NCBI RefSeq assembly: GCF_964213995.1
Contig: NW_027590479.1
Span: 62,001-126,000 of the forward strand
Direction of reading: 5' to 3'
DNA length: 64,000 nucleotides
From: Mustelus asterias
Lineage: Eukaryota
The translations under genes and the position numbers were made by a program. The notes beneath the pieces are model-generated. The model had not been told where the DNA came from and ran no database searches. It saw only the letters and a program-made list of their open reading frames with translations. Below are positions 2,459-45,929 of this stretch, piece by piece. Each line of letters begins with the position of its first letter. Positions within the stretch are counted from its first letter, which is position 1.

Positions 2459-5400
2459 TCAGGGTTTAATGAGTCGAAGAATTGCAGTAAGGGGAGCTTT
2501 CAGCAGATTTTTCAGCTGCTGCCTGAAGTGAGTCTGTGTCACAGCATAAATGGCAGTGTTTGTGCAGCAACTCAGGAGTTGCAGCATGAAGCCCAAATCC
2601 ATAACAAAGTAATCTAACCACACTAACCGGAAGCCCAAATTATACATCTGACCCCATATTGAAAAGACCATTAATGTTGACCATAAGAGGATGAAATTGG
2701 CTGAGATAACAAACAGTAAAATGATGGATTTCCTTCGACTCTCCATCTCTAGGTCTCTGGGAGTCTCCCCACTGCTGTGAGCCCGGAGTCTCCTGCGGGC
2801 TCTGCTGCTCACTAAAATGTGTCTGACGGTGAAAGCATTGAGCAGCAGAATCAGGGCGAATGGGACAGTCGGGGTTAGAATGTGGTGGAGGATCTCGATT
2901 GTTACCCAGACCGGAGATTCCACAACATCCATTGTGAAGCCACAAAACGAGGGGTTGTTCATCAGCCAATATCCATTTAATAACTTAAAATACCAGAAGA
3001 TGTTCTTTAAACAGCTCAGCACCGTCACTGTTCCCAGAACCACAGCCGACGATTTCTCACTGCAATATTTACTTTTCAGCTTGGGGCAGCAAATGGCCAC
3101 AAATCGATCAAAGGTGAAAGTGACGGTGAACCAGACAGAACAGTCAGTGGCTGCATACACCAAGACGGCGTGGATATTACACACGGGGAGCGAGTACAGG
3201 AAAGAAAACTGTTCCCAATAAACAATGGGAATGTGTCTCAATATCAGGTCGAGGATAACGACCAGCAGATCCCCCACTGACATGGCCACCAGGTAACGAG
3301 TGACACATTTGGACAGACCACAGTTTCTGCTCATCAGTGTCACAATTGTGATTATGTTCACTGTCAGGAAGGAAAATAAAGAATGAAATTAGATATGATT
3401 CAGGGGAAGAAATTACAATTCAGACTGAGGACGGGTGAAAATAGAAATAATGTGCACAGACACAGAATAATTAAATCTATGCTTTTAGAAAATCCAGCAC
3501 GTCTTTTGCAGCCTGTGAGAGGAAAGTGGAGTACCTGGAGGCAACCCCCACAGACACGGGGAGAAGGTCCAAACTCCACACAGACAGTGACTCACGCCTG
3601 GAATTGAACCCAGGTCCCTGATGCTGATAGTCAGCAGTGCTAACCACTGTGTCACCATTCTGCTCCATGGTAGCGACACAATGGTATACACTTGAGTGAG
3701 AGTTTTCCGGGGAGTCCACAACATTGACCCTCACTCAGCTACGGGTGAATAGCCCCTCTACCTTGTGGGGGATTTGGAGGGTAAGAAGGCTGAGGGAGTA
3801 AACCCTGTCAGAAAAGCCGGAGTGGAGTACTGTAGGTGGTTATCTGTCGTCTCTCAGACAGCTTACTGACAACCCCTGCAGCAGAGCTGGTACCAAACAG
3901 TACTGGCTTCACCCTTGCCTCTGGACAATACTAAAAGTTGGCAGAGGGAGATCCTGATGCCTCAACAGTTCCGACTCTATTATACTTACACAGGACTGTA
4001 CCCTGGAGAGGAGACCACAGCATTGTGGCCACCGGTAGCACAACACAGGAAGAAACAGTAATCTCACACTCGATTGGCACAGAACACAACTACCAGGGTT
4101 TGCTTTCAACAGTGGGAGAAAACTTCAGGGTTCAGTGAATAGCTACTGTCTCGAGTGCCCAGTGCGTTTGCTGCTCTCCCACTATGGCCTACTGGACCAC
4201 TGAAGCTTAGTGAGTCCTCTCTCAGCAGGAAAGTTGCTAATCTATGCACGAAGTAAGAAAAACTCAAACCAAGGCCGGGACCAAAGAAAAGCCAAGCGGT
4301 CTGCCTTAATGACTATCGTCCGGTGACTCGAACATTCAATATTATGAAATGCATCAAAGATTAGTCATGGCATAAATCAAATCCAGCCCCCCAGATTGTC
4401 TGGATCCACTACAGTTCACCTACCGCCACAACGTCCACAGACGCCATCTCCCTCACCCTACAGTGAACCCTGGAACACAGACTCGTGTTTATCGACTTCA
4501 GCTCATAATAAGAACATAAGAAATAGGAGCAGGAGTAGGCCATCTAGCCCCTCGAGCCTGCCCCGCCATTCAATAAGATCATGGCTGATCTGACGTGGAT
4601 CAGTACCACTTACCCGCCTGATCCCCATAACCCTTAATTCCCTTACCGCTCAGGAATCCATCCATCCGCGCTTTAAACATATTCAGCGAGGTAGCCTCCA
4701 CCACCTCAGTGGGCAGAGAATTCCAGAGATTCACCACCCTCTGGGAGAAGAAGTTCCTCCTCAACTCTGTCTTAAACCGACCCCCCTTTATTTTGGGGCT
4801 GTGTCCTCTAGTTTTAACTTCCTTACTAAGTGGAAAGAATCTCTCCGCCTCCACCCTATCCAGCCCCCGCATTATCTTATAAGTCTCCATCAGATCCCCC
4901 CTCATCCTTCTAAACTCCAACGAGTACAAACCCAATCTCCTCAGCCTCTCCTCATAATCCAAACCCCTCATCTCCGGTATCAACCTGGTGAACCTTCTCT
5001 GCACTCCCTCCAATGCCAATATATCCTTCCTCATATAAGGGGACCAATACTGCACACAGTATTCCAGCTGCGGCCTCACCAATGCCCTGTACAGGTGCAT
5101 CAAGACATCCCTGCTTTTATATTCTATCCCCCTCGCAATATAGGCCAACATCCCATTTGCCTTCTTGATCACCTGTTGTACCTGCAGACTGGGCTTTTGC
5201 GTCTCATGCACAAGGACCCCCAGGTCCCTTTGCACGGTAGCATGTTTTAATTTGTTTCCATTGAGATAGTAATCCCATTTGTTATTATTTCCTCCAAAGT
5301 GTATAACCTCGCATTTCTCAACGTTATACTCCATTTGCCATATCCTCGCCCACTCACTCAGCCTGTCCAAATCTCTCTGCAGATCTTCTCCGTCCTCCAC

Positions 5401-8400
5401 ACGATTCACTTTTCCACTTATCTTTGTGTCGTCTGCAAACTTCGTTACCCTACACTCCGTCCCCTCCTCCAGATCATCTATATAAATGGTAAAAAGTTGC
5501 GGCCCGAGTACCGATCCCTGCGGCACGCCACTAGTTACCTTCCTCCAACCGGAAAAACACCCATTTATTCCGACTCTTTGCTTCCTGTCGGATAGCCAGT
5601 CCCCAATCCACTTTAACACACTACCCCCAACTCCGTGTGCCCTAATCTTCTTCAGCAGCCTTTTATGGGGCACCTTATCAAACGCCTTTTGGAAATCCAA
5701 AAACACCGCATCCACCGGTTCTCCTCCATCAACCGCCCTAGTCACATCTTCATAAAAATCCAACATGTTCGTCAAGCACGACTTTCCCCTCATGAATCCA
5801 TGCTGCGTCTGATTGATCGAACCATTTCTATCCAGATGCCCTGCTATCTCCTCCTTAATAATGGATTCCAGCATTTTCCCTACTACAGACGTTAAGCTGA
5901 CCGGCCTATAGTTACCCGCCTTTTGTCTCCTTCCTTTTTTAAACAGCGGCGTAACATTAGCCGTTTTCCAATCAACCGGCACTACCCCAGAATGCAACGA
6001 GTTTTGATAAATAATCACTAACGCATCCACTATTACCTCTGACATTTCTTTCAATACCCTGGGATGCATTCCATCCGGACCCGGGGACTTGTCCACCTTC
6101 AGTCCCATTAGTGTACCCAGCACTGCCTCTCTGGTAACATTAATCGTATTAAGTATTTCTCCTGCTGCCAACCCTTTATCGTTAATATCATTAGTCTACC
6201 CAGCACTGCCTCTCTGGTAACATTAATCGTATTAAGTATTTCTCCTGCTGCCAACCCTCATCCTTTATCATCATTATTCCTGCGAAACCCATGTCCAAAT
6301 TCCGTGTCCTGGGGTTCGGCTCCTGCCTCTGCAATTTGATCCGGAACTTCCTGATACGCAGAAAGCAATAAATAAGGAAAGTCAACAACACCTCCTCCGC
6401 AATCATCCTCAACAGCGGTGCCCCACAAGGCCGTGCCCTCAGCTCCTTACTATACTCCTTATACGCCGATGACTGTGTGGCCAAATTCCCCATCAACTCG
6501 ATTTCCAAGTTTGCTGATGACACCAGTGGGTCAGATCTCAAACAACAATGAGATCGAGGACAGGGAAGAGCTAGATAATCTGGTGAACTGGGGCGACCAC
6601 AATAATCTCTTCCTGAATGCCAACAAAGCAAAGGAGATAGTCATCGACTTCAGGAAGCAGAGTGGAGTACATGCCCCTGTCTAAACATTGGGGTGAAGTT
6701 CAAATGGTCGAGAGCATCAAGTTTTTATGGGTCCAGATCACCAACAACCTGTCCTGGTCCCTCCATGACGATCCAGATAGTCTGGGGGCCGCAGCTCTTC
6801 GCGAGCAGCCCCTGACCGGAGAGAGGGCCCCCGCTTCCCCATATCCCAGACCAATCATCCACCCTTCCCCCACACCAATTACATGCAGAGAGGCAGCGAG
6901 AACCCCCTCCCTACCCCACTGTGCATGCAGAGAGGCAGCGAGATTTTCCTCCCTAACCCACTGTGCATTCACAGAGGCAGTGAGATCCCCCTCCCTATCC
7001 CACTGTGCATGCAGACGCAGCGACACCCCCTTCCTACCCCACTGTGCAGCAGAGAGGCAGCGAAGCTTCCCTCCATAACCCACTGTGCATTCACAGAGGC
7101 AGCGAGAACCCCCGTCCTACCCCACTGTGTATGCAGAGAGGCAGCCAGACCCTCCCCCTACCCCACTTTGCATGCAGAGAGGCAGCGAGACCCCCTCCCT
7201 AACCCACTGTGCATGCAGAGAGGCAGCGTGGAACCCTCCCTGCCCCACTGTGCACGCACAGAGGCAGCGAGACCCCCTCCCTACCCCACTGTGCATGCAG
7301 AGAGGCAGCGAGACCCCCTCCCTAACCCACTGTGCATGCAGATAGGCAGCGATGCACCCTCCCTGCCCCACCGTGCATGCAGAGAGGCAGCGAGACCCCC
7401 TCACTACCCCATTGTGCATGCAGAGAGGCGGCGATGCACCCTCCCTGCCCCACCGTGCATGCAGAGAGGCAGCGAGACCCCCTTGCTACACCACTGTGCA
7501 TGCAGAGAGGCAGCGAGACCCCCTCCCTACACCACTGTGCATGCAGAGAGGCAGAGGGACACCCTCCCTACGCAACTGTGCATGTAGAGAGGAAGCACGC
7601 CCACCCTCCCTACCTCACTGTGCATGCAGAGAGGCTAAGGGTCACCCTCCCTAACCCACTGTGCATGCGGAGAGGCAGCGAGACCCCATCCCTGCCTCAC
7701 CGATCGTGTGCAGAGTGGCTGGAGGACCCGCTACACTCACCAATCTCGTGCAGAGCAGCAGTGGGGGTGCGCTCCCTACTCCACCAATCACATGCAGCGT
7801 GGCATTGGGCCACTCAACTGAATGGATCAGCCCGCTCCCCAAGGGCCCATCTGCCTTCAGGACCTGCCCCTTCAACTCCCACCCCTGCAGGTCCAGCCCC
7901 TGCAGGTCCCGCTCCTGCACGCCATGGCCCACAGGCGCCGCTATCTTCAGGCTCCGCTCTGTAGACCCTGCCACCTCAGGCACCACCCCCTGGTACTGCC
8001 CGGTGGGCATTGCCCAAGGGGAACCTTCCTTTGCCCTCGACCTTGCCCGGTGTCCTCAATGGCCTTCGCTTCTACCGGTGAGGCCATCACAACTCGTCCT
8101 CATACATGTGGCCAGCTCTTTCCCTCACTGGACACAGCCTCTCCCGGTGAGGCTGCAAAGGTAAGCGTGCCCGGACGATTACATCCCAGGCTCGCTAATT
8201 TTAATTAAATTTGTTATAAAATAAATTTCAATAATTTACTCAGCCTCTTGCCAGAAATGGGCAGGAGACTCAATCCGCCCCATTTCCGTTGCGGGTGAAG
8301 GTTGCAAGAGGCGAGAAATGGGGCGTGGACCTGAGTTCTCGGCTGTTACGCCATCCATGGGCAGGCAGTAGTTGTTATCCTGCCCCCTACCGTGTGTGTG

Positions 8401-9610
8401 TTGCGTGTGTCTATATTGTCTTTACCAGTATGCATGTGTGTTTGTGTGTGAGCAACAGAGTACCTGACGAGTATTCCAAAGTGTGCGTTATTCTGGAGTG
8501 TTACAGCAATTTTGGATCTTGAATTTGTGTGTGTGCGAGTAAGTGTCTAATCTGATTGCTTCTATCAGTAAATGTCTGTATTAATATATGTGCGTTTGAG
8601 TGTGTCTGTGTGTTTGTGTTCCTGTGACTCTAGGAGAGTTTGTGATGGTACAAGGGATAGCGTTGCTGCCTCATAGCACTAGGGGCCCTGGATCAATTCC
8701 AGTCTTGGCTGCTGTCTGTGCAGAGTCTGCACATTCTCCCTGTGTCTGCGTGAGTTTCCTCCAGGTGCTCCGGTTTCCTCCCACTCTCTGAAAGTTGTGC
8801 TGGTTAGGTGCATTGGCCATGCTAAATTCTCCCTCAGTGTACCTGAACAGGTGCTGGAGTGTGGCGACTCGGGGATTTTTATAGTAACTTCATTGCAATG
8901 TTAATGTTCGCATACTTGTGACACTGACGCATAAATTTAAAATTTTATGAAATATGTTCTCTCTCTGTGGGATCCTGCTGTGCATATATGACCAATAAAA
9001 TTGATTCTGTGGCGTGGTGATTTGGTGGGTGAACTGGTGTTATATGCAGAGGGTAAAAATGATTCTGTCTCAATCTTTTACTCACGATGGAATAACGTTT
9101 GAGGTCACATGTCTATGGAAAGTCACAGCACACAGAAGACATCCTAGCCCATAGGCCCTCAGACAGTGGCTGAAAGAATTAATAACCGGAGACTGAGATT
9201 CACCAGAAACAAGAGCAGCAAGCCGAGTACAGTAAATGTCAAGGAAATCAATACAGTTGAACAGCCTTTCTAGAATTAGGAGCTGGACACAGGGGACGGG
9301 AGTTTACAGCCTCAATCTTCCCAAAGCTGCAAAATCCCACCCGTGTTCAACAGACCTTCCCATGCTCCGCCCCTCGCCTGCTCCGATTCCCGTGGCGGTC
9401 GGGCCGGTACAATTCCAGCCAGGACTTACCCGGAACACCAACAATCGCCAGGAGGGGATAGTAAATGCACTGAATCGCCTTCAGTAGATATTCAATCCGA
9501 TGAGCTGATGTTACCCACGAATAATCTGCAGTAAACCAAGAAATCCAATAGAATAAACTCCTGTCCTTGGTTGGAACATTCCAATCCATTGTTCCCAGAT
9601 TCTGATCCAT
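2459..9610 (-). CDS. GPR139-like class A GPCR #1; exon 1 9610-9430, exon 2 3360-2459; 360 aa
   Basis: Exon 1 ends ...IYYPLLAIVGVP with GTAAGT donor at 9429; TTCCTGACAG acceptor at 3361; phase-1 join gives GVP-V-NIITI; seven hydrophobic segments, DRFVAICC, TM3 and ECL2 Cys, TM7 CCTNTAIY; open frame to stop at 2459. Confidence 0.9.
3495..3660 (-). mobile_element. tRNA-derived V-SINE/HE1-like SINE, degenerate
   Basis: Head ACAGTGGTTAGCACTG..GGGTTCAATTCC and core TCTGTGTGGAGTTTGGACCTTCTCCCCGTGTCT on the minus strand. Confidence 0.8.
4275..6775 (+). mobile_element. Rex1/Babar-like LINE remnant (4275-4505 and ~6265-6775) split by a CR1 insertion
   Basis: LNDYRPV-, LDPLQF.YR- and FIDFSS-like coding before the insert; IIP.., GAPQG..LS.LLY, KFADDT and KEIVIDFRK after it. 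Confidence 0.72.
4505..6262 (-). mobile_element. Young 5'-truncated CR1 LINE with uninterrupted 523-aa RT ORF (4600-6171)
   Basis: KSPGPDG, NYRPVSLTS, DFQKAFDKVPH, PQGSVLGP and KFADDTK with no stops or frameshifts; TTCTTATG tail at ~4505-4520. Confidence 0.95.
6881..7710. repeat. GC-rich minisatellite, ~41-42 bp unit, ~20 copies
   Basis: Unit ~CCCCACTGTGCATGCAGAGAGGCAGCGAGACCCCCTCCCTA; successive copies 41 bp apart (e.g. 7203, 7244, 7285). Confidence 0.93.
8640..8940 (+). mobile_element. V-SINE-type SINE (second tail family)
   Basis: Core GCACATTCTCCCTGTGTCTGCGTGAGTTTCCTCCAGGTGCTCCGG; tail AACTTCATTGCA.TGTTAATG shared with copies at 39.0, 50.8 and 52.4 kb. Confidence 0.8.
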
Positions 9611-9694
9611 TGTTGGAACATTTCAATCCATTGTTCCCAGATTCTGATCCATTGTTGAAACATTCCAATCCATTGTTCCCCGGATTCTGATCTC
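9569..9694 (-). repeat. 21-bp tandem repeat spanning the GPCR #1 start, each unit starting with ATG
   Basis: ATGs at 9673, 9652, 9631, 9610 and 9589; units encode MDWNVST / MDQNLGT / MD*NVPT / MDQNLGT / MDWNVPT. Confidence 0.9.
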
Positions 9695-10054
9695 TCCTCT
9701 CCCTCCCTCTCTCTCCACAGCCGCTGATCTCTGTTAGTGTCGGAGTTGTCGCTCCCGCTGCCTCAATGGGACAACACATTGAACGGAACCCCTTATTAAT
9801 AGAAGAGGGGAATCCCTCCAGACACACTAATCGGATCCATGGAGACTCACATCAATTACAGTCACTAAACAAACAGCTTCACTTAACCCCCTTCAATCCA
9901 ACACTTTTTATACCCAAAGTAGAACATTTACAGCCGAGATGGGATGTTCCTGGTCAGGGAGTTATGGAAAGTTGGAAATAATGGAGGGTCGGACCGTAAA
10001 TCCTTCAGTATTCATTCTATGTAACAGAGCTCCCTCTGCTAGTGTTCATTTTGA

Positions 10055-10805
10055 GATGACTAGGATATAAAAGCAGGGGTATACTGTTGAGTTTTTATAA
10101 GACTCTGTTCAGACCACATTCAGAATATTGTCAGCAATTTTAGGCCCCGTATCCGAGGACGGATGTGTTGGATTTGGAGAGGGTCCAGAAGAGGTTCAGA
10201 AGAATGATCCGGGGAATGAAAGACTTAACGCATGAGGAGCGTCTGAGGACTTTGGGTCTATACTCGATGGAGTTTGGAAGGATGAGGAGGGGGATACCAT
10301 TGAAACTTACAGAATAATGAAAGGCCTGGATAGAGTATACTTGGGGCTGATATTTCATTAGTAGGAGAGGCACAACCTCAGAGGAAACGGATGACCCTTT
10401 GGAACTGGGATGTGGACCTGCCGGCATTGGACTGGGGTGGGCACAGTAAGAAGTCTCACAGCACCAGTTGTCCACTCACCTGATGAAGGAGCAGCGTTCC
10501 GAAAGCTCGTGGGACTTTAACCTGCTGTTGTGAGACTTCTTACTTTCGAAATTTGACGAGGAGGAATTTCTTCAGCCAGAGGCTGGCGAATCTGTGGAAT
10601 TAATTGTCACACAAGGCTGTGGAGGCCAGGTCATTGAGTGTATTTAAGAAAGAGATATCTAGGTTCTTAACTGGTAAAGTGCTCTAGGGTTATGGGGAAA
10701 AAGCGGGAGAATGGGTTTGAGAAACTTATCAGCCAGAATTGAATAGTGGAACAGGCTCAATGGGCCTAATGGCCTAATTCTGTTCCTATATTTTATTGTC
10801 TTATA
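10055..10805 (+). mobile_element. Degenerate CR1 3' fragment
   Basis: Similarity to RPHLEYC..LERVQRRF.. coding and to the 3' UTR of the copy at 1-1298; many stops. Confidence 0.75.
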
Positions 10806-10969
10806 GGTATCATGGATGTGGCTTTTAGATGAGGTTAAAGTTAATCAGGGTTGATATAGTCTGCTAAATCCAGGCTGTAGCCGATCTTATATACAGCTTA
10901 TGTCCAGAACAACCTTAGTAAGGGACTTCACACAGATCAATCTCTCAGTGTTATGTGCAGTACAATCTG

Positions 10970-13483
10970 AGCAAGAGGAACAGATTGGGAAGCAGATCCT
11001 GGAGAGATGTGATAATAACAGAGTGGTCGTGATGGGAGATTTTAATTTCCCAAATATCGATTGGAATATCCCTAGGGTAAGGGGTTTATATGGGGAGCAG
11101 TTTGTTAGGTGTGTTCAGGGGGGCTTCCTGACAGAGTATGTGGATAAGCCTACAAGAGGAGAGCCTGTACCTGATTTGGTATTAGGGAATGAACCTGGGC
11201 AGGTGTCAGATCTCTCAGTGGGAGAGCACTTTGGGGATAGTGATCATAACTCAATCTCCTTTACATTAGCATTGCAGAGAGATAGGATCAGTCAAGCTAG
11301 GAAAGTGTTTATTTGGAGTTAGGGTAATTATGAGGCTATTAGGCAGGAAATTAGAGGCATCAATTGGAAGGAGGTTTTCTCAGGGAAATGTACAGAAGAA
11401 ATGTGGCAAGGAAAATGTGTCTGGAGCTCTGCACAGCAACGTACGAATGAGACAGGGGAGTTATGGTAGGTCACAGGAACCATGGTGCACGAAAGCTGTA
11501 ACGAATTTAGCCAAGAAGAAAAGAAAAGCCTACAAAAGGTTCAGGGAGCTAGGTAATGTTATAAATCTAGAAGAGTATACGACTAGTAGGAAGGAACTTA
11601 GGAGGGAAATTCGAAGAGCAAGAAGGGGTCATGAGAAGGCCTTGCTGGGCAGGATAAAGGAAAACCCCAAGGCATTCTACAAGTATGTTAAGAGCAAGAG
11701 GATAAGATGTGAAGGAGTAGGACCTATCAAATGTGACGGTGGGAAAGTCTGTTTAGAACCGATAGAAATGGCAGAGGTACTCAATGAATATTTTGCTTCA
11801 GTATTCACAGTGGAAAAGGATCTTGGTAGTTGCAGTGCAGACTTCCTGTGGACTGAGAATATTGAGCATGTGGACATTAGGAAAGAGGATGTGTTGGAGC
11901 GTTTGGAAAGCATCAAGGTAGATAAATCGCCGGGACCGGATGGGGTGTACCCCAGGTTACTATGGGAGGCGAGGGAAGAGATTGCTGAGCCTCTGGCGAT
12001 GATCTTTGCGTCATCAATGGAGACGGGAGAGGTTCTGGAGGATTGGAGGATTGCGGATGTGGTTCCGTTATTGAAGAAAGTGAGAAGCGATAGCGCAGGA
12101 AATTATAGACCGGTGAGTCTAACCTCAGTGGTTGGTAAGTTGATGGAGAAGATCCTGAGAGGCAGGATTTATGAACATCTGGAGAGGAATAGTATGATCA
12201 GAAATAGCCAGCACGGCTTTGTCCAGGGCAGATCATGCCTTACGAGCCTAATTGAATTTTTTGAAGATGTAACTAGACACATAGACGATGGAAGAGCGGT
12301 AGACGTAGATTATATGGATTTCAGCAAGGCGTTTGATAAGGTGCCCCATGAAAGGCTCATTGAGAAAGTGAAGGGGCATGGGATACAAGGGGACATGCTT
12401 TGTGGATTCAGAACTGGCTTCCCCACAAAAGGCAAAGAGTGGTTGTAGATGGGTCTTTTTCAGCATGGAGGTCAGTCACCAGTGGAGTGCCCCAGGGATC
12501 TGTTCTGGGACTCTTGCTCTTTGTGATTTTTATAAATGACCGAGATGAGGAAGTGGAAGGATGGGTTGGCAGGTTTGCTGATGACACAAAGGTTGGTGGT
12601 GTTGTGGATAGTGTAGAGGGATGTCAGCAGTTGCAACGAGACATAGATAAGATGCAAGACACGGCGGAGAAGTGGCAGATGGACTTCAACACAGATAAGT
12701 GTGTGGTGGTTCATTTTGGCAGGTCGAATAGGATGAACGAATGTAATATTGAGGGTAAGACGCTTGGCAGTGTGGAAGATCAGAAGGATCTTGGGGCCCG
12801 GGTTCATAGGACGCTCAAAGCAGCGTCTCAGATAGGGGCTATGGTTCAGAAGGCGCATGGAATACTGGCCTTCATCAATAGAGGAACTGAGTTTAGAAAT
12901 CGGGAGATATTGCTGCAGCTGTATAGGACCCTGGTAAGACCCCACCTGGAGTACTGTGCCCAGTTCTGGTCGCCTCATTACAGAAAGGATGTGGAAGCCA
13001 TAGAAAGGGTGCAGAGGAGATTTACAAGGATGTTGCCTGGATTAGGTGGCACGCCTTATGAGGATAGCTTGAGAGAGCGAGGTCTTTTCTCCTTGGAGAG
13101 GCGAAGGATGAGGGGTGATCTGATAGAGGTGTATGAGATGTTGAGGGGTATTGATAGAGTGGATTCTCAGAGGCTTTCACCCAGGTCTGTAATGGTTGCC
13201 ACAAGAGGTCACAGCTTTAGGGTGCTGGGGAGTAGGTACAGAGGAGATGTTAGGGGTACGTTTTTCACTCAGAGGGTGGTGGGTGCGTGGAATCGGCTGC
13301 CGGAAGTGGTGGTGGAGGCGGATTCGATAGGGTCTTTTAAGAGACTTTTGGATAAGCCCATGGAAGTTAGGAAGATATAGGGTTATAGGTAAGCCTAGTA
13401 GGTAGGGACATGTTCGGCGCAACTTGTGGGCCGAAGGGCCTGTTTGTGCTGTAGCTTTTCTATGTTCTGTGTTCTATGTTCTA
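10970..13483 (+). mobile_element. CR1 LINE ORF2 (endonuclease C-terminal half + RT), frameshifted
   Basis: GDFNFPNIDW, DLVLGNE and GDSDHN (APE endonuclease); RT motifs in ORFs 11330-12448 and 12400-13380; TTCTATGTTCT tail. Confidence 0.95.
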
Positions 13484-13749
13484 AGTAATGAGTACAATTG
13501 GTTGAGATTATTCGAAGGAAGATGAGAATGATGCATTAATGAGTCAGCAGAAATCATTGCACTCTTAGAAATTTGCCAGACGAACACTTTTACATTTTGA
13601 AGATCAAGCTAAGTTGAGAAGTCAGGTTGAAAGAGACGGTTTTCTTCTTGAATTAAGTAACGTGGGCTCACATTCGAACCATTGGACCCTGCAGCAACAC
13701 AGCGCGGTTGAACATTGCCGACAGGCCGATGAGCAGCAGGGTGCTGTCA

Positions 13750-13822
13750 GTTTCTGTAGTGTAGTGGTTATTACATTCGCCTCACACGCGGAAAGACCCC
13801 GGTTTGAAACAGGGCGCAAGCA
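13750..13822 (+). tRNA. tRNA-Val(CAC), probable pseudogene
   Basis: GTTTCTGTAGTGTAGTGGTTATTACATTCGCCTCACACGCGG..CCCCGGTTTGAAACAGGGCGCAAGCA; T-loop TTTG, acceptor and T-stem mismatches; TTTT follows. Confidence 0.85.
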
Positions 13823-14944: not shown

Positions 14945-15017
14945 CTATGCGGTCACTTGGTTATCACATTCACCTCATACGCAGGCGGTTCCTGGTTCCT
15001 GACCAGGAAGGAACATT
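14945..15017 (+). pseudogene. tRNA-Val relic in duplicated block
   Basis: TGGTTATCACATTCACCTCATACGC..CCTGGTTCC; same position within the 14705-15165 copy of block 13500-14090. Confidence 0.65.
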
Positions 15018-15457
15018 CATTTAGGTTTCCCATGTAGGGTGAGAGAAATATGTTTGATTTCAGTTTGTTGGTAAACATTATCTGAATCTCGATGTTGCAG
15101 CCATATTATCTTTGCTCTGACTCCGGCCTCACATGCTTTCTCCAAAATCAGAAATGCTGAATTTGATGACGCACATTATACAAAATTGTGTAAATTCTCT
15201 CAGACATTCTGGATTATGAACAAAACGTAATTGAGATTAACATTTACTTAATGTCTTAAACTTACTTGATGAAAATCTTTGAGTAGAATTTAACTTAAAA
15301 TAGTCAGTTTCTGTTGAAAAGCCATTAGCTAACATCAATTTCTCCAGAGAAGCGGACTAAAGTTCGCCAGCATCTGTCTGAAGAGATCGAAAGTTAATGC
15401 AGACATTTTTTATCCAAAGTAATATGGAATTGGTAAACCTATTTTAAAGTTTCACGC

Positions 15458-15530
15458 CGAACCAGCCAGGAGTTGAACTTAGAGCCTTCTGATATGCAGG
15501 GAGAGCCGTTACCCATTACGCCACTGGCCC
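15458..15530 (-). pseudogene. tRNA-Arg(ACG)-derived pseudogene
   Basis: GGGCCAGTGGCGTAATGGGTAACG..ATCAGAAG..GTTCAACTCCTGGCTGGTTCG; anticodon arm destroyed. Confidence 0.75.
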
Positions 15531-19366: not shown

Positions 19367-19624
19367 TAAGACAATGCAGTATCATCCTTAAATTAAAGAA
19401 TGCGGATGATTTTCTCATCACAAAACCCACTCTCACTGAGTGACTGCTTCTGCAATCGGATAAGTTATGCCCTGACTGTCAATATGTCTGAGCAAAGCCG
19501 CTGTCAGGAATTGCAAAGCCCTGACAACCGCGCTCACATACTCCATTTCCTGTTCTCGTTCTGACATGTCTTGCCTGCAGTGTGCTGTTTATTTGATCGC
19601 TACGGCAACTGTAAACAGGGGTGA

Positions 19625-20121
19625 GGTTTTTGTACAGTGACTGCCGTCTTTCCTCTCAGTGTGGGCTCTATCGCACAGTAATATAAAGCGGTATCCGTGC
19701 TCTCCGTGTTTTCAATTATCAACTGGCTCGATTTGTCCGCAGTGGAAAGTTCCAATTCGAATCGGTCCTTTCTCTCTTTGCTATCCGAGAATCTACGTAT
19801 CATCCACTGCAGACCTTGACCGGGTTTTTGTCTGTACCGATACATTCTGTAAATGCTGGACATATCATAGCTGCAGTTTAGCCGCACCGAATCCCCGCTC
19901 TGGGCTGTTCTGGCTATGGGAGTTTGTGAAACTTAGTCCGAACGACACCGATCTATAAAAAAAAACATTTAGTCAATTAGGCACTGGAGCAAAATGTATT
20001 TAAATAGCAGTCTCGACACGTTATAGAGTAAATTTCTTGCACTTAGAACCATAATAAAATGGAACAGACTCATTTGCACCGTGTAATACAATAAAAATGT
20101 CAATCGGAAAATGGAGCACAT
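19625..20121 (-). pseudogene. TCR alpha/delta-type V pseudogene #2 (V exon 19952-19664; 23-RSS 19663-19625; putative leader from 20121)
   Basis: T-rich TATAG acceptor; RCRSD*VSQTP..SVRLNCSY..MYRYRQKPGQGLQW..DTALYYCAIE; in-frame TAA and conserved Trp changed to Arg; CACACTG-23 bp-ACAAAAACC; leader donor not canonical. Confidence 0.9.
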
Positions 20122-36119: not shown

Positions 36120-38148
36120 ATGCGGTCCCTCCACCCTGGAAGCATTGAATGAATCTGTACCAGAGGTCACCATTGCAGATGTCAGAGCAACTTTCTGAAA
36201 GGTCAACCCACGGAAAGCAACAGGCCCGGATGGGGTACACGGACGAGCACTCAGATTCAGCACGGATCAGGTGCTGAGGGGATTCGCAGACATATTCAAT
36301 CTCTCTTTACAATAATTTGGGGTCCCTATCGACCGTCATCCCAGTACCAAAGAAAAGCCAAGCAGCGTGCCTCAATGAATACCATCCGGTGGCTCTGACA
36401 TCCATCATTCCGAAGTGCTCTGAAAGGCTACTAAAAGAACAAAGAACAATACAGCACAGGAACGGCCCTTCGGCCCTCCAAGCCCGCGCCGCTCCCTGGT
36501 CCAAACTAGACCATTCTTTTGTATCCCTCCATTCCCACTCTGTTCATGTGGCTATCTAGATAAGTCTTAAACGTTCCCAGTGTGCCCGCCTCCACCACCT
36601 TGCCTGGCAGCGCATTCCAGGTGCCCACCACACTCTGTGTAAAATATGTCCTTCTGATATCCGTGTTAAACCTCCCCCCCCACTCCCCCTCCCCCCTCAC
36701 CATGAACCTATCACCCCTCGTGAACGTCACCACCGACCTGGGAAAAAGTTTCCCACAGTTCACCCTATCTATGTCTTTCATAATTTTATACACCTCTATT
36801 AGGTCTCCCCTCATCCTCCGTCTTTCCACACGTGGCACGAATCAATTGCAGTGTCCAGGACTGCCTGGATCCACTGCATTTCGCTACCGCCGCGACAGGT
36901 CCACAGCAGGCGCCATCTCACTGGCCCTACACTCAACCCTGGAAAGCTATATGACAAAGACACTTATTTCAGGCTCCTATTGATTGACTACAGCTCAGCA
37001 TTCAACATCATTATTCCTACGAACTTCATCTCCAAATTCCGTGGCCTGGGGCCTGACCCCTCCCTTGCGACTGAATCCTGAACTTCCTAACCCGCAGACC
37101 ACAATCAGTAAAGATTGGCAACAACACCTCCTCCACGGTCGTCCTCAACATCGGTGCCTCACAAACCTGAGTGCTCTGTCCTCAGCCCCTTACTCTACTC
37201 CTTGTGCACCTGTGTGGCTAAATTCCCCTCCAACTCGATTTTGAAGTTTTGAAGCATCACTGTAGTGGTTCGGAACACAAACAATGGCGAGGCGGAGCAC
37301 AGGCAAGAGATAGAGAATCTGGCGAACGTTTGCGGCGACAATAATCTCTCCCTCAATGTCAACAAAACAAAAGAGATTGTCATCGACTTCAGGAAGCATG
37401 GTGGAGAACATACCCTTGTCTAATTCAATTGGCGATGAAGTAGAAATGGTCGAGAGCTTCATGTTTTTTGATGTCCAGATCACCAAAAACCTGTCCTCGC
37501 GTACCCTCCACCCAGTCCCGCCGCCCCCCCCCCCCCCTCCCCCCCGCCCCCTGCCCTCCACTCCCAATACCGACATCTGGTTAAAAAAGCCCACAAACGC
37601 CTGTAAATTCTCAGAAATCGAAGGAAATTTGGCATGTCCGCTACGACTCTCACCCATTTTTACAGATGCACCATAAAAAACATTATTTCTGATTGTACCA
37701 TAGCTTGCTATGGTTCCTGCTTTGTCTAAGACCGCAAGAAACTACAAAGCCCACTCCATCACGCTAACCAGCCTCCCACCCATTGACACTGTTGACACTT
37801 CCCGCTACCTCGGCAAAGCAGTCAGCATAATTAATGACCCCATGCACCCCAGAAATGATCTCTTCCCCCTTCTTCAGTCGGGAAAAATATTCAAATGTCT
37901 GAGGACACGTACCAAACGATTCAAGAACAGCTTCTTCCCTGCTGCTATCAGACTTTTCAATGGACCAATCTCGCACTAAGTTGATCCTTCTCTACACCCT
38001 AGCTATGATTGTAACACTGCATTCTGTACTCTCATTTCTTTCTCTATGAACAGTATTCCTTGTCTATATAGCGCATAACAAATACTACTTTTCCACTGTA
38101 TGCCAATACATGTGACAATAATAAATCAAATCAAATCAAATCAAATCA
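36120..38148 (+). mobile_element. Rex1/Babar-like LINE remnant interrupted by CR1
   Basis: [64 protein letters not shown]; (ATCAA)n tail at ~38125. Confidence 0.8.
36433..36829 (-). mobile_element. CR1 3' fragment nested in the Rex1-like element
   Basis: ERRRMRGDLIEVYKIM..YFTQSVVGTWNALP; AAAGAACAAAGAAC tail. Confidence 0.85.
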
Positions 38149-38771
38149 AGCACCCACAGAAACATAGTGAATGTTGAGAAGTTCTTTGTTTTAACACAGC
38201 GTGTCACTGAATGGGACTCTGAATGACGGTAACTGGCAACATCCCATAATAGTCTGATTAAGTCAGAATGTCAATCACCAGTCTCGCTCAGAATGAGGAG
38301 AAAGTGAAGCTCCCCTCTCTATTCCCCTTCCCCACCATTGACAGTCCTGGCCTCTGCAGCAAATTCCCGTCTGCAAATAAAACCCTGATTGATCCATCTT
38401 CATTATTACGAACAAAAGCCTGTTTGCAGCTGAAGCTCTGATATTGTGTGATTATATTTTTTTCTAACCAAATGCCATGTTTTACCAATTTATTAATAAT
38501 GCGTGTTAGTTAATTGACTGTTCTTTTGTTCACAGCCGTTCAGTGTGACGATCAAAGCTCCCATCCTGAGCAGATGCTGTCTCGGGAAAGGGAATCGCTT
38601 GAACTGAACTGTCGGGTCCCCGATGGTTCTGGTATCTGTTGGGTGAATGTTTGATCCGATGTTATTCTGGTTTCCTCTCGCTGTATTTGAACAGCTGACA
38701 GCGCCGTTGTTCATTGTGACTGCCTGCCCGCGATTCTAAACAACCCGCAGCAGACAGGAGCACCTATCTAG

Positions 38772-39540
38772 AGTTTTCCTACGGCTGTGGGAATGTTTTC
38801 TATCACTGTGAGACTGAAAGCGCAGTAATACGCAGCAGAGTCAGTCCACTACAGACCCAATGTATTTAAACTAGTCACTTTTTTCCCACTCTGGAGTTGC
38901 TGCAAAATCTGCTTTATCCTCAGTATCCCAGGAGCTTTTACTCACGATAAATTCCGTTTGTAGATCTGGGAGCTGTCGATACCAATCTAAATAAAGTTTA
39001 GATTCATTTATTTGTCAGAAGTAATGTTTGCATTAACACTGAAATGAAGTTACTGTGGAATCCCCTCGGTCGCCACACTCCGGCGGCTGTTCGGGTCAAT
39101 GCACCTAACCAGGACGTCTTTCAGAATGTGGGAGGAAACCACAGCACGCAGATGAAACCCACGCAGACACGGGGAGAACGTGCAAACTCCACACAGACAG
39201 TGACCCAAGCCAGGAATCAAACCCGCGTCCCTGGTCCTGTGAAGCACTGTGCTACCCTGCCGCCAGTGCCAGCAATAATAGTTGCTGGCTGTGGCATCAA
39301 AGGTGCAGGTCATTGTCACCGCTTCTCCTTGTGCCTTAACATCTGAGGAGCGTCGCTGAGTCACAGAATCTTAGTTAGATCTGGAGAGAGAAGAAATATA
39401 ATCACATCTGAACAGTTCAGGCTATAGGGTGCTAAGATTTGAACCGTGCTTGATAAATGCGAGAAAAGATTAAATGTATTTAATCTCCAAGCACCTGCTC
39501 GGAATGATCCGCACACAACCCAGATGCTGAGCAGCCGCAT
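38772..39540 (-). pseudogene. TCR delta/alpha-type V pseudogene #3 (leader 39540-39495; V 39380-38811 split by a SINE; 23-RSS 38810-38772)
   Basis: 46-nt leader MRLLSIWVVCGSFRA + GT; TCTCTCCAG acceptor; DSVTQ..GEAVTMTCTFDA..NYY[SINE]LDWYRQLP..DKADFA..DSAAYYCAFS; CACAGTG-23 bp-AGGAAAACT; frameshifts and stops. Confidence 0.9.
38993..39272 (-). mobile_element. V-SINE inserted in V pseudogene #3
   Basis: GGCAGGGTAGCACAGTG head, V-SINE core and tail matching 8640-8940. Confidence 0.88.
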
Positions 39541-40334
39541 TGTCGCTTTCCTCTGTGTAAAAGTGAGTTGGGTATTTGACGGTATCTGTTCTACATCCCA
39601 CTCCCAATAATCTGTTGTTGCCTCAAAATGTCTTCACCTCACTTCTTGTATCGCTGGGGACGCTGTGAACCCAGTGGATGGTGAGCTGGTGATTCGCAAA
39701 TGGAATCACCCCGAGCTGGGTGACTCATTCTCAGATTTTGGTTCCAGAATTCACGAGCAGAGTGAGTGTCACTGTCTGGATATACTGACCCCGGATATCG
39801 ATCTTTTGGTTTTATTCCATTCGTACTTTCGAATTCCCATTGTCTCATTTGCAGGTAACGGCGACTCCCACTCAGGGGTTTTGTTTTTCTTCACACTTTC
39901 AAAGGATTTCACAATCGCGGCCGATGCTATTATGTGTCGTTCATCCCTAATAGACCCAAGGGATTTGGTTGACATTTTGCTGGTGCTCGTGCTGAAGGCT
40001 CCCAACATAAAAGCTGCTCATTCATTATTAGAGCTACCCAAAGCTAACATAAAGTATATGAAGGACGAGGGCGCCAAGGGTGTTTTGAAAGGAACAATGC
40101 GGTCCAGTTAAAAAGAAATGGCAACAGTTATTCAGTAAAATGAGGCGTTACTGACCAATTTATGCAGTCTGGGATGCGTCGAGCAGCAGATGGGGTTAGA
40201 CAAAATGTGGTGTGTCGTTCAGGACAAAAATAAATAAAACATCTTGTTAACGTTCATGTTAGCTTAAACGTTCATCATCGATTTCAAAATAGAACACAGT
40301 ATACATGTGAAATACTTCATTCATTGCTCTTCCT

Positions 40335-41020
40335 GCCAGATGTGGGGGTTCAGGGAGCATTCTAGTGGCCCTGACGGCTATGTCTGCGGTAAGTTTGACT
40401 AGCTACAGCTCCTCACACACAGCATGGTTCGGTTGGAGCAGCAGCTGGACACACTACGGAGCATCCAGGGAGTATAAAGCATGATGGACACTGGCTTCAA
40501 AGAAGTAGTCACAACACTGATCCAGATAGGTCGATGGATGACCTCCAGGAGAGGCAGGCAGGAAATGCAAGAGTCTCCTGTAGCTATTCCCCTCCCATAC
40601 ATATATACCTTTATAGATTTTGTTGGAGGTTGGGGGCAGATAGACTCTCAGGAGGAAATACCAGCAACAACCAAGCCTGTGGCAACACAACGGGTTCTGC
40701 TGGAGAGCAAGGTCGGGCTAGGTCTTAGCGAGTGATAGTAGAAGGATTCTCGATAGTCAGGGACAGAGAATGACGTTTCTGAGGCAGCGAACGACACTCC
40801 CGGATGCAGTGTACAAGGATCCATGGCTGTCTCTGAGCAGGTACAGGGCATATGAAACGGGAGGGTAAACAGACAGATATCATTGCCCACATTGGCGCTA
40901 ACGACATAAACATGAAGAGGGAGGAGTCCTGCAAAGACGTTTCTGGGAGTTAGGTAGGAATCTACAAAGCAGGACCACGAGGATAGTAATCTCAGGATTG
41001 CTGCCAGTGCCACGTGCTAT
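40335..41020 (+). mobile_element. CR1 ORF1 remnant (coiled coil + SGNH-esterase-like)
   Basis: LQLL..RLEQQLDTLRSI-, GDSIVR- and HIGANDI-like coding, degenerate. Confidence 0.6.
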
Positions 41021-41029
41021 TGAGGCTTG

Positions 41030-42015
41030 TCACTGGGATGTCTTCTGTTGTTTGCAGTGTATATAAATGATCTGAAGGAAAATGTGGGTGGTCTGATTAG
41101 TAAGTTTGCAGATGAAACGAAGGTTGGTGGAGTTACTGGTAGTGCTGGGGATTGTCAGAGGATACAGCAGGATCCAGTTAGACTGGAAACTTGGGCACAG
41201 AAATGCCAGATGGAGGTAAATCGGGACAAATGCGAGGTAATGCATTTTGGAGGATCAGATTTAGGTGTGAGTTACACTGTAAATGGCAGAACCCTTCGGC
41301 ACATGAACATACAGAGAGATCTGGGCATGTGGGTACACATCCACCAAAAAGAGGCAACACAGGTGACCAAGGTGATAAAGAAGGAATATGGCATCCTTAC
41401 ATTCATCGGCCGGGACATTGAGTAAAATAGTTGGAAAGTCATGTTGCAACTATATAAAACGTTTGTTCTGACGCATTTAGAGTATTGTGTGCAGTTTCCG
41501 TTGCCACAGTACCAGAATGACGTGGAATCTTTGGCGAGAGTGCAAAGAAAGTTCACCAGGACGTTGCCTGGTCTCGAGGGTGTTGGCTGTGAGGAGAGTT
41601 TGAATAATCTAGGATTATTTTCACCAGAAGGACGGAGGCTGAGGGAACTGAGAAGACCAGAGGTCTGCAAAATTACGAGAGGCATAGACAGGATGGATAG
41701 TCAAAGGCTTTTTCCCAGGGCGCAAGTGTCATTTACAAGGGGGGCAGTGGTTCAAGGTGAGAGGGGAAAATTTTAAGGGAAATGTATAGGAGAAGTATTT
41801 CACACAGAGAGTGGAGGGTGCCTGCAACGCTCTGCCAGAGAAGGTTGTGGAAGAAGAGACATAAACAACTTTTAAGAGGCATCTGGATGGGTGCATGAAA
41901 AGGGAGGGATCTAGATCGAATAAGCATAGGAGGTTTTTTTAGTTAGGGCATTATGATGGACATGGACCTGGCGGACCGAAGGGCCTGTTTTTGTGCTGTA
42001 CTTTTCCTTGTTCAA
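41030..42015 (+). mobile_element. Degenerate CR1 RT/3' fragment
   Basis: YINDL..SKFADETK; LEYCVQF; 3' UTR GAAGGGCCTGT..TGTGCTGTA. Confidence 0.85.
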
Positions 42016-42891
42016 TGTTTTTTGTACTAAATCAATTAAATAAAGGAAATAACTGAAACGCAAAAGGACAAAAGAGTTTCTAACATGACAGAGACAGGAG
42101 GAGCTGGTTTTGTGTTCGAGTTCAGGCTTGAATTTAGCATTTACCATTAGTGCGTCTAATTAATGTTGATGCCAATTGTTGCGGGCTTTGATATCAGTCT
42201 TTTAATTGATCACAACTTTACCCTTTGAGTCAGCCAGAAAAGTAAGAGTTTTCTTTAAAAGATTTTAATATAAGCTTTAGCAACGACCCTGGGAAACTAC
42301 AGTTCATATCCCTGGTTAGAAAGTTAGCCAGAGATATTTCATGATACAAAGGCAACTAAAGTTTTCAAAATCGATGACAAGTAATTAGCATAAACCAATC
42401 ACAATCACTTTATGCTTACTTCATTATAACATCCAATCATCAAGAAAACTTAAGAGTACAACTCGCTTTTGTATCTGTGAATCACTCCCATTTTCCAGTA
42501 GTAGATGTCTAATTCATGTGCTTTGCCAGTCTGATGGCCTTGGTGCCTCTCTATGAAGCTGTTATAAGAAGACTTTTGTTTTTCTTCCTTTGTGAATTTT
42601 AAACTTGTGTGACTATTAACTATTTTACCAACGCATGGTTTTGAGGGAGGGGGACAATGGAATTTGCAGCCAGCACTTTTGCTCATAAAAATAATAGAAT
42701 CACCCACCTTGCCACCCACCGGCAAGAAACCAGGAGTTAATTTGTTTGTTAACCGAAGTGTGAGTAATGTGCATTGTTATAATGTAATTGATCCTCTGGA
42801 GACAATCACACAGGATAAATGAGATGCCCTTGGAGCGTGTGACATAGCTAAGGTGAACGGGTTGGAGAGTTTTCTCCCTTTGTGAAAAACG

Positions 42892-45800
42892 ATGCATGGA
42901 CCAGCGAATGGCCCTTTCTATGCCGTTTACTATCCCGTTCTCGCTGCAGTTGGCATTCCAGGTAATTTTTTAATTCCAAAAAGAACTTTGTTTTTGTTCG
43001 CGATGATTATATTGGTTGCATTGTGATGTCTCGACAGAATAGAATGGAGTGAATATTAATCATTCATGTAACTTCTCATGTTCAATAACACTTGTTCTTG
43101 TTAGAAATATCGAAATGATTTGGAGGAAAATTTAACTGGTTTGATTCGTAAGTTTGCAGGCGACACAAAGATTGGTGGAATTGTGGATAGGGATGATGAC
43201 TGTCAGAGGATGCATCAGGATATAGATTTGTTGGAGACCTGGGCAGAGAGATGGTAGATGGAGTTCATAGAACATAGAACAGTACAGCACAGAACAGGCC
43301 CTTCGGCCCAAGATCAAGCTATCCCACTCCCTATCATCCTGGTGTGCTCCATGTGCCTATCCAATAACCGCTTAAATGTTCCTAAAGTGTCTGACTCCAC
43401 TATCACTGCAGGCAGTCCATTCCACACCCCAACCACTCTCCGCGTAAAGAACCTACCTCTGATATCCTTCCTGTATCTCCCACCACGAACCCTATAGTTA
43501 TGCCCCCTTGTAATAGCTCCATCCACCCGAGGAAATAGACTTTGAACGTTCACTCTATCTATCCCCTTCATCATTTTATAAACCTCTATTAAGTCTCCCC
43601 TCAGCCCCCTCCGCTCCAGAGAGAACAGCCCGAGCTCCCTCAACCTTTCCTCATAAGACCTACCCTCCAAACCAGGCAGCATTCTGGTAAATCTCCTCTG
43701 CACTCTTTCCAGCGCTTCCACATCCTTCTTATAGTGAGGTGACCAGAACTGCCCAAAATATTCCAAATGTGGTCTCACCAAGGTCCTGTACAGTTGCAGC
43801 ATAACCCCATGGCTCTTAAACTCCAACCCCCTGTTAATAAAAGCTAACACACTATAGGCCTTCTTCACAGCTCTATCCACTTGAGTGGCAACCTTTAGAG
43901 ATCTGGGGATATGAACTCCAAGATCTCTCTGTTCCTCCACACTCTTCGGAACCCTACCTTTGACCCTGTAATCCACATTTAAATTAGTCCTACCAAAATG
44001 AATCACCTCACATTTATCAGGGTTAAACTCCGGAGAAATGTGAGGTAATGCAGAAAGTTCAATCCGGAGAAATGTGAGGTAATGCATTTTGGAAGGTCTG
44101 ATAAAGTTGGGAAATATACAGTAAATGGCTGATCCCTTAAGAGTATTGATAGGCAGAGTAATCTGGGTATACAGCTACGCAGGTCACTGAAAGTGGCAAC
44201 GCAGGTGGAGAAGGTAGTCAAGATGGCATATGGCATGCTTGCTTTCATCAGCCAGGGCATTCAGTTGAAAAATTGGCAAGTCATATTGCAGTCTTATTGA
44301 ATCTTAGTTAGGCCGCACTTGGGAAATAATGTTCAATTCTGTTCGCCACACTACCAGAAGGATGTGGAGTCATTGGAGAGGGTACAGAAAAGACTTTCGA
44401 AAATGTTGCCTGGAAGGAAGGGCATTAGCTATGAGGAGAGGTTGGAGAAACTTGGTTTGTTCTCACTGCAACGACGGAGGCTGAGGGGCGACCTGATAGT
44501 CGTCTAAAGGATTATGAGGGTCATGGACAGAGTAGATAATCAGAAGGTTCTTCCCAGGGCACAAGAGTCAATTACTAGGAGGCATAGGTTTACGGTGTGA
44601 AGGGCAAATATTAAAGGACATTTACGAGGCAAATTCTCTACACAGAGAGTGGTGGGTGCCTGGAACTCGCTGCCAGGTGAGGTAGTGGAAACAGGTGCAA
44701 CCGTGACTTTTAAGTGGCGTCTTGACAAGTACATGAATAGGATGGGAATAGAGGGATAATGTTCCCAGATTGGTCGGGTATTTTTTTCAGTTCAGTCGGG
44801 CAGCATGGCCGGTGCAGGCTTTTAGGGCCGCAGTGCCTGCTCTTGTCCTGTAATTTTCTTTGTTCTTTGTTATTTGTTCTTAAAACGTGAAACCTTCTGG
44901 TGTAGATCTTCTGTTAAATATGAGGTTTGTGGGCTTCAATTCAAACGATAATGCCCTGACCAGGATCCGAAAAGAAAGGCCTAATGTTTGGAATCAGATT
45001 TTCAACATTTTTAACCCTCCCTTACAGCCAATTTGATGGCTATCGTGATCCTATCCAGAGGACGGTGTGGACTGTCCCAGTGCATCACCTACTACCTGGT
45101 GGCAATCGCGGTGACTGATTTCCTGGTTATGATTTCTGCTGTCATCCTCAACCGGATTGGTGGCATTTACTTTCGATATAGTGTCCTCTCCACCACCCCC
45201 GGGTGCACGGTCAGCAGCGTCCTGGTATATACCACCCGTGATGGGTCCGTCTGGCTGACTGTAGCCTTCACCATCGACCGTTTTGTGGCCATCTGCTGCC
45301 AGAGCCTGAAGACCAGATACTGCACCGAGAAAACAGCATTGCTGGTTATCGGAATAGTCTGTGCACTGAGCTGTGTCAAAAACATCCCTTTCTTCTTCAC
45401 CTATCAGCCCTTGTATATCCTAGACGGGGTGCCTTGGTTCTGTGATATCAAGTCCACCTTCTACACGTTAACCATCTGGCAGGCCTATCTCTGGCTAGAC
45501 CGCATATTAACACCATTGTTTCCATTCTTCCTGATCCTGCTGCTCAACGCTCTGACTGTGAGGCACATCTTAGCAGCCAGCAGGGCCCGCAGGAGACTCC
45601 GGGGTTCCGAGAGTCGGGGAGACATGGAGATGGAAAACCGCAAGCGGTCTATTGTCCTGCTTTTCGCCATCTCCCTCAGCTTCCTCCTCCTGTGGGTCAT
45701 ATATGTCGGTCATTTCCTCTACGTACAGATTTCGGGTGAGCCATACTTCACCGGCCTGGATTTCAATGACCCGCAGTACATCCTTCAGGAGACGACCAAC

Positions 45801-45929
45801 ATGCTGCAACTACTTAGCTCCTGTACTAACATCTTCATTTACGCAGTGATTCAGACCAGATTCAGGGAAGAGATCAAGAACCTGTTGATGTCTCCGTTCG
45901 CCACCCTCAAAGGTTTTCTGAAACGGTGA
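42892..45929 (+). CDS. GPR139-like class A GPCR #2; exon 1 42892-42961, exon 2 45028-45929; 323 aa
   Basis: MHGPANGPFYAVYYPVLAAVGIP + GTAAT donor at 42962; CCCTTACAG acceptor at 45027; phase-1 join GIP-A-NLMAI; DRFVAICC, TM3 and ECL2 Cys, SCTNIFIY; open frame; AATAAA at 46045. Confidence 0.92.
43110..44880 (+). mobile_element. Degenerate CR1 (host) in the GPCR #2 intron
   Basis: RT-like coding at 43110-43266, resuming at ~44031-44880; TTCTTTG tail. Confidence 0.82.
43266..44030 (-). mobile_element. Younger CR1 3' fragment nested antisense in the host CR1
   Basis: Open ORF 43314-44087 (EFNPDKCEVIHFG..VWNGLP); CATAGAACATAGAAC tail. Confidence 0.92.

Follow-up and report, generated by a model that had tools for sequence, protein, structure and literature searches.

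Two genes for class A G-protein-coupled receptors (GPCRs), here called genes A and B, lie in a 64,000-nucleotide (nt) stretch of the Mustelus asterias genome (contig NW_027590479.1, positions 62,001 to 126,000; G000:C447:62001-126000, where C-numbers such as C5, C15 and C71 are contig labels of the 3.68-Gb genome), which is referred to below as the window. Almost certainly, both belong to a class A receptor family of sharks and skates that is represented by about 2,000 loci in the M. asterias genome. The family is real, very large, apparently undescribed, under mixed selection and mislabelled as GPR139. The coding exons of the two genes, and a repeat at the start of gene A, are as follows.

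2459..3360, minus strand: gene A exon 2, 902 nt, uninterrupted from N1.50 in transmembrane helix 1 (TM1) to the stop codon
9430..9673, minus strand: gene A coding exon 1, with its first ATG at 9673 and a GT donor after 9430, in phase 1
9570..9692, minus strand: 21-nt tandem repeat encoding 7-residue N-terminal units, mostly ATG-led, whose number differs among copies of the clade
42892..42961, plus strand: gene B coding exon 1, 23 codons and one base, followed by a GT donor
45028..45929, plus strand: gene B exon 2, 902 nt, uninterrupted, completing a protein of 323 amino acids

In both genes an AG acceptor and a GT donor bound a phase-1 intron placed after G-x-P in TM1, and splice sites and reading frames bear out the 902-nt second exon and the TM1 intron that a preliminary description of this DNA had proposed; the conserved intracellular and divergent extracellular segments quoted there also match the sequence as written. 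The exon-2 proteins of A and B are 47.5% identical, and both proteins match Pfam 7tm_1 above its cut-off and no other Pfam family. Class A features are present in the N1.50, D2.50, DRx, P5.50 and Y7.53 columns and in seven predicted helices. The structure predicted for gene B exon 2 from a 102-sequence alignment contains seven helices, helix 8 and a beta-hairpin in extracellular loop 2 (ECL2), with a predicted local distance difference test score of 89; a structure search with this model returned peptide receptors as best matches, with many similar scores and GPR139 at rank 20, and is not discriminating. P6.50 and P7.50 are missing from both proteins, as had been noted for the CWxP and NPxxY motifs. 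The loss of the NPxxY proline was rejected as a special feature because true GPR139 and GPR142 also lack P7.50, carrying phenylalanine at this position.

Gene B is intact, with an open frame across both exons, and its exon 2 is 100% identical to a public protein named ‘putative G-protein coupled receptor 139 [Mustelus asterias]’. The earlier view that both genes are intact holds for gene B and for exon 2 of gene A, and fails for gene A exon 1. Here translation from the ATG at 9673, the first one downstream of the TATA box and likely start site, would meet an in-frame TGA (9625-9623) after 16 codons; this stop sits within the 21-nt repeat, and open frames begin only at ATG 9610 or 9589. From the clade of gene A (the A clade), 20 regions were fetched, six lacked a donor match, and exon 1 is open from the first ATG in all 14 sister copies compared; it is likewise open from the matching ATG in a near-twin of gene A on C770. 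Because the TGA is absent from all 14 sister copies, gene A is probably a young copy that is weakened or newly dead, barring re-initiation or a base error.

The size of the family was assessed by several searches. Exact degenerate patterns of the TM3 motif gave 1,500, 2,019 and 2,129 matches over the whole genome, against 0, 2 and 2 for reversed-pattern controls, a paralogue count far from the one or two copies that would have spoken against an expansion, and the family forms clusters on many large contigs. When the two proteins were searched against the genome, 5,830 and 5,943 preliminary candidates emerged, and 131 were scored in each case: the gene B matches range from 100% down to 56% identity, while those of gene A are all at least 85% identical, 128 of the 131 being free of stops. 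A pattern for the A clade gave 838 matches, 72 on C5-C25 and 766 on C27 and later contigs, many of them small. Forty motif-picked loci were sampled, spread over the first listed matches and confined to contigs C3-C16; exon 2 is unbroken in 28 of them (one without the expected acceptor) and broken in 12. At the DNA level, 49 of 50 A-clade exons compared are distinct. These counts suggest that some 1,500 genes are intact, a figure that falls towards 1,000 if the small contigs represent uncollapsed haplotypes. Searches of public proteins gave 1,571 and 2,205 matches; of the 120 listed for each, every named one comes from a shark or a skate. No chimaera appears among these 240 listed matches, no search having been aimed at chimaeras. 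The A clade looks under-annotated, because no protein-database cluster is more than 85% identical to gene A.

The family shows birth-and-death turnover in addition to its size and clustering, and its lineages differ in age. The A clade has undergone a burst in M. asterias, with at least 131 copies at 85% identity or more versus at most 78% in other sharks. The gene B lineage is 81-83% identical across shark orders, and gene B itself is present in six copies at 99-100%. Positions 9605-56441 of the window are about 98% identical over 47 kb to a block at C71:8.25-8.30 Mb, including V (variable) segments and tRNA copies. The partner of gene A in that block is only 85.6% alike in exon 2 (43 amino acids and 15 silent codons differ), and the C71 likeness ends at the gene A exon 1 repeat, which together suggest sequence exchange at the repeat. 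A dense young cluster at C15:80.4-84.4 Mb has DRM in place of DRF, a shortened ECL2 and mosaic loops, and in some copies the ECL2 cysteine is replaced.

The relation of the family to GPR139 was resolved by the presence of separate loci. The GPR139 motif was found once in the genome, and true GPR139 lies at C23:73.89 Mb; a search with it gave GPR142 next, at 57% (C12:98.99 Mb), followed by the shark family at 26-33%. Genes A and B are 26-28% identical to true GPR139 and GPR142. Among proteins clustered at 50% and rescored with a family profile, the closer relatives are amphioxus genes and two orphans, one from reedfish and one from coelacanth; the coelacanth gene has orthologues in fishes, amphibians, reptiles and sharks. 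The M. asterias genome contains one locus for each orphan, at C25:56.72 Mb and C5:28.70 Mb. In a tree of 41 rows chosen from 99 (LG+C20), the family forms one clade (support 100/100), joined by the two orphans (98/95) and then by amphioxus (97/90), with GPR139 and GPR142 apart (100/100); forcing the family to group with GPR139 and GPR142 was rejected by an approximately unbiased (AU) test run after the tree had been seen (p-AU 0.007). Rinne et al. (2019, PMC6504862) describe, in the available text, GPR210A, GPR210B and a third set as GPR139-adjacent orphans of coelacanth, gar and fishes. As a pair, the two single-copy orphans fit the GPR210A and GPR210B sets. The family is the sister group of these GPR210-type orphans and its genes are not their orthologues, since the genome holds a separate copy of each orphan. 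The expanded family distinct from the GPR139 orthologue, as proposed earlier, is thus upheld by the separate loci, the tree, the AU test and the non-neutral evolution described below, with the refinement that its nearest relatives are GPR210-type orphans and not GPR139. Relatives of the C25:56.72 Mb orphan extend from sharks to turtles and snakes, with none from birds or mammals among the 120 listed, and this orphan is sometimes named after TMEM183A.

GPR139 and GPR142 are the closest named human receptors. Like the family, they have two coding exons, a phase-1 TM1 intron and no P7.50 (PDB 7VUG, 9M42; PMC7318219, in the part available), and the acceptor position before N1.50 is common to GPR139, GPR142, both orphans and the family. 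By contrast, they are single-copy and highly conserved, with P6.50 and without C3.25, whereas the family is the reverse: among 34 members C3.25, W6.48 and N7.49 are each present in 33, Y7.53 in all 34 and P6.50 in five. Positions 5.50 and 7.53 are invariant in the 34 members, and the pocket positions 3.32, 3.33, 5.42, 6.51 and 7.39 take 8-13 residues. The GPR139 amino-acid pocket (E3.32, F3.33, H5.43, W6.48, R6.51 and N7.38), as reviewed in the accessible part of PMC7318219, is not retained: A keeps the histidine and the tryptophan, B keeps the tryptophan and the asparagine, E3.32 occurs in none of the 34 members and R6.51 in two, and H3.37 is not kept. The GPR210-type orphans (the coelacanth P0365 group and the reedfish P0321 group) agree with the family in intron position, in C3.25 and in their short N-terminus, and differ in having one locus each and 23-36% identity to it; sharks are not mentioned in the available text of PMC6504862. 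Further afield, GPR139 and GPR142 cluster with the protostome MIP/sex-peptide/FMRFamide receptor group (PMC11004728, available text). Protein-atlas searches returned only the automatic GPR139 name and weak Srw or Srx matches in some members or clusters (Srw in 16-42% of members); nematode Srw is an independent expansion, and the window proteins match only 7tm_1.

Selection was measured as the ratio of nonsynonymous to synonymous diversity (piN/piS), tree-free and uncorrected, with bootstrapping over codons, in sets picked as top matches to gene A (A clade) and to GPR139 (C15 cluster), and in the B lineage. In the A clade (49 sequences) the ratio is 1.62 [1.02-2.75] for the loops and 0.33 [0.18-0.60] for the inner face, and in the C15 cluster (42 sequences) it is 1.63 [1.11-2.63] and 0.50 [0.29-0.81]; in the B lineage (27 sequences) it is 0.35 for the loops and 0.29 for the whole. 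Inner-face values range over 0.22-0.50 among the sets, and ECL3 alone does not exceed 1 in the A clade or the C15 cluster. A codon mixture model allowing omega (the nonsynonymous to synonymous rate ratio) above 1 improved twice the log-likelihood by 665 in the A clade, with about 8% of codons in omega classes 6-14, and by 303 in the C15 cluster. By hand tally of the model outputs, sites with a probability above 0.95 of omega above 1 number 30 of 124 outer versus 10 of 175 inner sites in the A clade and 28 of 114 versus 5 of 175 in the C15 cluster, so that the outer half holds 30 of 40 and 28 of 33 selected sites. The most variable sites of gene A ECL2 alternate (129, 131, 133, 135), a spacing that would place them all on the same side of a strand. 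Evolution of the family is therefore not neutral: the outer loops are under diversifying selection in two young clades, and the gene B lineage is under purifying selection. A variable ligand face over a conserved signalling face, as first described for both genes, fits the A clade and the C15 cluster but not the gene B lineage, which is conserved throughout.

The two genes also share a compact arrangement of predicted promoter sites, for which the forkhead, homeodomain and EBF names are consensus labels that we assume.

9793..9875, minus strand: gene A promoter module, with forkhead-type (9875-9867), homeodomain-like (9859-9852) and EBF-like (9822-9811) sites and a TATA box (9801-9793)
42743..42820, plus strand: gene B promoter module, with a forkhead-type site (42743-42750), TAATTG (42785-42790), an EBF-like site (42793-42802) and a TATA-like box (42814-42820)

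Exon 1 was located in 31 of 38 fetched family regions, and 34 upstream sequences, 21 of them clade representatives, were anchored on a TATA-like box chosen by its distance to the ATG. The 21 representatives contain three position-locked blocks, ATnTGTTTGTT near -75, GTAAYTAA near -56 and TCnnTGGAGATT near -21, with log-likelihoods of 64, 59 and 87 versus control maxima of 39-43 (eight control sets each, with fewer starts). The motif TGTTTGTT occurs in 8 of the 21 versus 20 of 2,007 control windows, and TAATKR in 13 of the 21 versus 23% of controls; octamer, Ets, Runx and E-box motifs are not enriched in these representatives. The upstream DNA of the clades is mostly otherwise unalignable, and the blocks are still kept. 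Common descent explains the sharing itself, and the retention of these islands across clades about 50% identical in protein implies that the predicted sites are under constraint.

The remainder of the window contains three V segments of T-cell receptor (TCR) or immunoglobulin heavy-chain (IgH) type and six tRNA calls, of which the following were delimited.

19603-19932, minus strand: TCR alpha/delta-type V segment, an open exon with tyrosine for the usual tryptophan and a near-canonical heptamer-23-nonamer signal
32632-32705, minus strand: tRNA-Glu(TTC), which folds fully
38800-39370, minus strand: V pseudogene broken by a short interspersed nuclear element and stops
58626-59000, plus strand: IgH-like V pseudogene lacking the first cysteine, with a degenerate signal

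The C71 block carries a 94% copy of the first V segment. The other five tRNA calls (Val, Gln, Asn and two unassigned) are degenerate, and a relaxed tRNA scan allowing introns gave only noise, so that the picture of an immune-gene and tRNA graveyard suits these calls and two of the three V segments, and not the open V segment or the tRNA-Glu(TTC). A further nine or so V segments lie in the flanks of the window on the unplaced contig C447 (30288-35466 and 145695-168836), several of them of alpha/delta-like type and one presumably of the kind labelled NAR-TCR V; no further family gene was found in 107 kb of C447 flanks. The mixture of V segments with a receptor block recalls the mammalian TRA/TRD locus, where odorant receptors occur. 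The gene A intron contains a 41-nt tandem array of about 20 units (6882-7700) and a reverse-transcriptase fragment of a long interspersed nuclear element (LINE) with 531 open codons (4603-6195, minus strand), LINE fragments accounting for most long frames of the window.

From these sequence patterns, we put at about even the chance that the family is a chemosensory repertoire, in which a shared signalling face would be combined with different outer pockets for external chemicals or peptides. An ancestral single orphan receptor would have gained a compact promoter for one cell type and given rise to many copies through tandem and segmental duplication accompanied by exchange of sequence; selection would then have diversified the ligand face, with DRF, W6.48, NxxIY and the G-protein face held fixed, and gene B would represent a conserved detector of the old type. 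Like the vertebrate odorant receptor, V1R-ORA, TAAR and V2R repertoires, the family is a clustered set of compact genes whose number runs into the hundreds or thousands, about 30% being broken, with a variable pocket and with homeodomain and putative EBF-like blocks in the promoter. It differs from them in lacking sequence membership (7tm_1 only), and in having a coding intron and a TATA-containing, forkhead-led promoter. In mouse, according to the available text of PMC5318403, odorant-receptor promoters combine homeodomain and O/E sites, mostly without a TATA box, and the enhancers contain Foxj2 sites, a code that the family promoter may resemble in part. In catshark only 34 V2R genes and 4-9 genes in each other olfactory family were reported despite a large olfactory organ (PMC10116579), and cartilaginous fishes are described as smelling with one small, V2R-led repertoire (PMC10116579, PMC11979771; both as far as their available text goes).

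Several observations weigh against a chemosensory repertoire. Homeodomain and forkhead blocks are enriched in the 21 promoters and the EBF-like block is position-locked, but the generic EBF pattern is not enriched (3 of 21 versus 7%, p 0.18), and mouse odorant-receptor promoters are usually TATA-less, in contrast to those of the family, so that a clear copy of the odorant-receptor code was rejected; EBF and forkhead factors are, moreover, active in lymphocytes too. Strong selection and TCR-type V neighbours fit an immune arms race equally. Uncollapsed haplotypes may inflate the counts, given that 766 of the 838 A-clade matches lie on C27 and later contigs. Sequence exchange inflates the codon-model test, and the selection claim is therefore carried by the tree-free piN/piS; four-gamete incompatibility is high, with a local compatibility excess in the C15 cluster (0 of 200 permutations) and none in the A clade (25 of 200) or the B lineage (56 of 200). 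Finally, a catshark brain-plus-olfactory library included no GPCR among its top 50 genes, a weak point for a repertoire split over many genes. Contigs from seven of 22 sequencing runs, 18 of which are presumed and none recorded to be RNA, with tissue unlabelled, are no evidence either way on expression: family-like contigs cover exon 2, mostly at less than 95% likeness, two in run X3 stop at acceptor 3360, some in X1, X2, X4 and X8 enter the intron, one in X8 continues with unrelated letters, and no exon 1-exon 2 joint was found in them.

The main rival to a chemosensory role, possible though doubtful, is an innate-immune or barrier sentinel repertoire, in which MRGPR- or formyl-peptide-receptor-like proteins on leukocytes, mast-like cells or nociceptors would sense microbial or parasite peptides. 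The MRGPR and formyl-peptide receptors of rodents are class A families that expanded in particular lineages, show selection on their outer loops and stand between sensory and immune roles, although they belong to a different class A branch and form far smaller families than that of the shark. The high omega classes and the at least 838 recent copies of the A clade would suit such a role, as would the dozen TCR- and IgH-type V segments of the window and its flanks, the predicted likeness to peptide receptors with an ECL2 hairpin, and the absence of MAS1 relatives from cartilaginous fishes stated in the available text of PMC8455134. However, two V-domain queries found no V segment in 21 A-clade regions of 10 kb, for which reason the association with V segments may be a local one; the promoters show no enrichment of octamer, Ets or Runx motifs, and the gene B lineage is both under purifying selection and well conserved across shark orders.

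That the young clades serve reproductive or individual recognition, with pheromone, gamete or genital-tract signals and sexual selection driving change, appears improbable. The species-level burst of the A clade would be expected of such receptors, and the wider group has peptide receptors as its protostome relatives, for example the MIP/sex-peptide receptor (PMC11004728, in the text available), but the old conserved clades would be left unexplained, and receptors located in the nose would bring the proposal to overlap with the chemosensory reading. Less probable still is that segmental duplication in repeat-rich regions carried the copies along as passengers, most of them without distinct function. 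The C71 block with its V segments and tRNA copies, the near-identical copies of gene B, the 12 broken loci among 40 and the stop in gene A are what passengers would show; the constrained inner face, loop values above 1, the 128 stop-free A matches and the promoter blocks conserved amid mostly unalignable DNA are not, and for the family as a whole this explanation is largely refuted. The proposal that gene A or B is orthologous to GPR139 or GPR142 and senses aromatic amino acids in brain or gut finds support in the database names and the common acceptor position, and was rejected as practically untenable on the separate C23 and C12 loci, the low identity, the tree, the AU test and the loss of E3.32, H3.37 and R6.51.

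No description of the family was found in the literature searched; a mention could be held in unseen supplements, possibly in a tandem-gene table, or in subscription journals. The family is absent from the available text of the catshark, whale shark and Squalomix genome papers, and 12 of the 24 whale-shark supplementary files and both of those of PMC11406177 gave no family match. The database ‘GPR139’ labels in sharks are mostly wrong, and about 1,000-1,500 intact receptors named ‘probable GPR139’ contradict outright the paucity of GPCRs stated for cartilaginous fishes (PMC8455134, in the part available). With this family at hand, the view of a small olfactory repertoire becomes directly testable. 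Tentatively, the chemosensory reading may be extended to a fifth vertebrate olfactory-type family, of at least 1,000 genes in sharks and rays, which would stem from the GPR139/GPR210 branch, have a single member active in each sensory cell under a forkhead-homeodomain-EBF-TATA promoter and replace the missing odorant receptors; if true, this would overturn the view that sharks and rays smell with about 50 receptors. Whether in nose, skin or leukocytes, the family would rank among the largest receptor repertoires of vertebrates and would be the first to have arisen from this class A branch.

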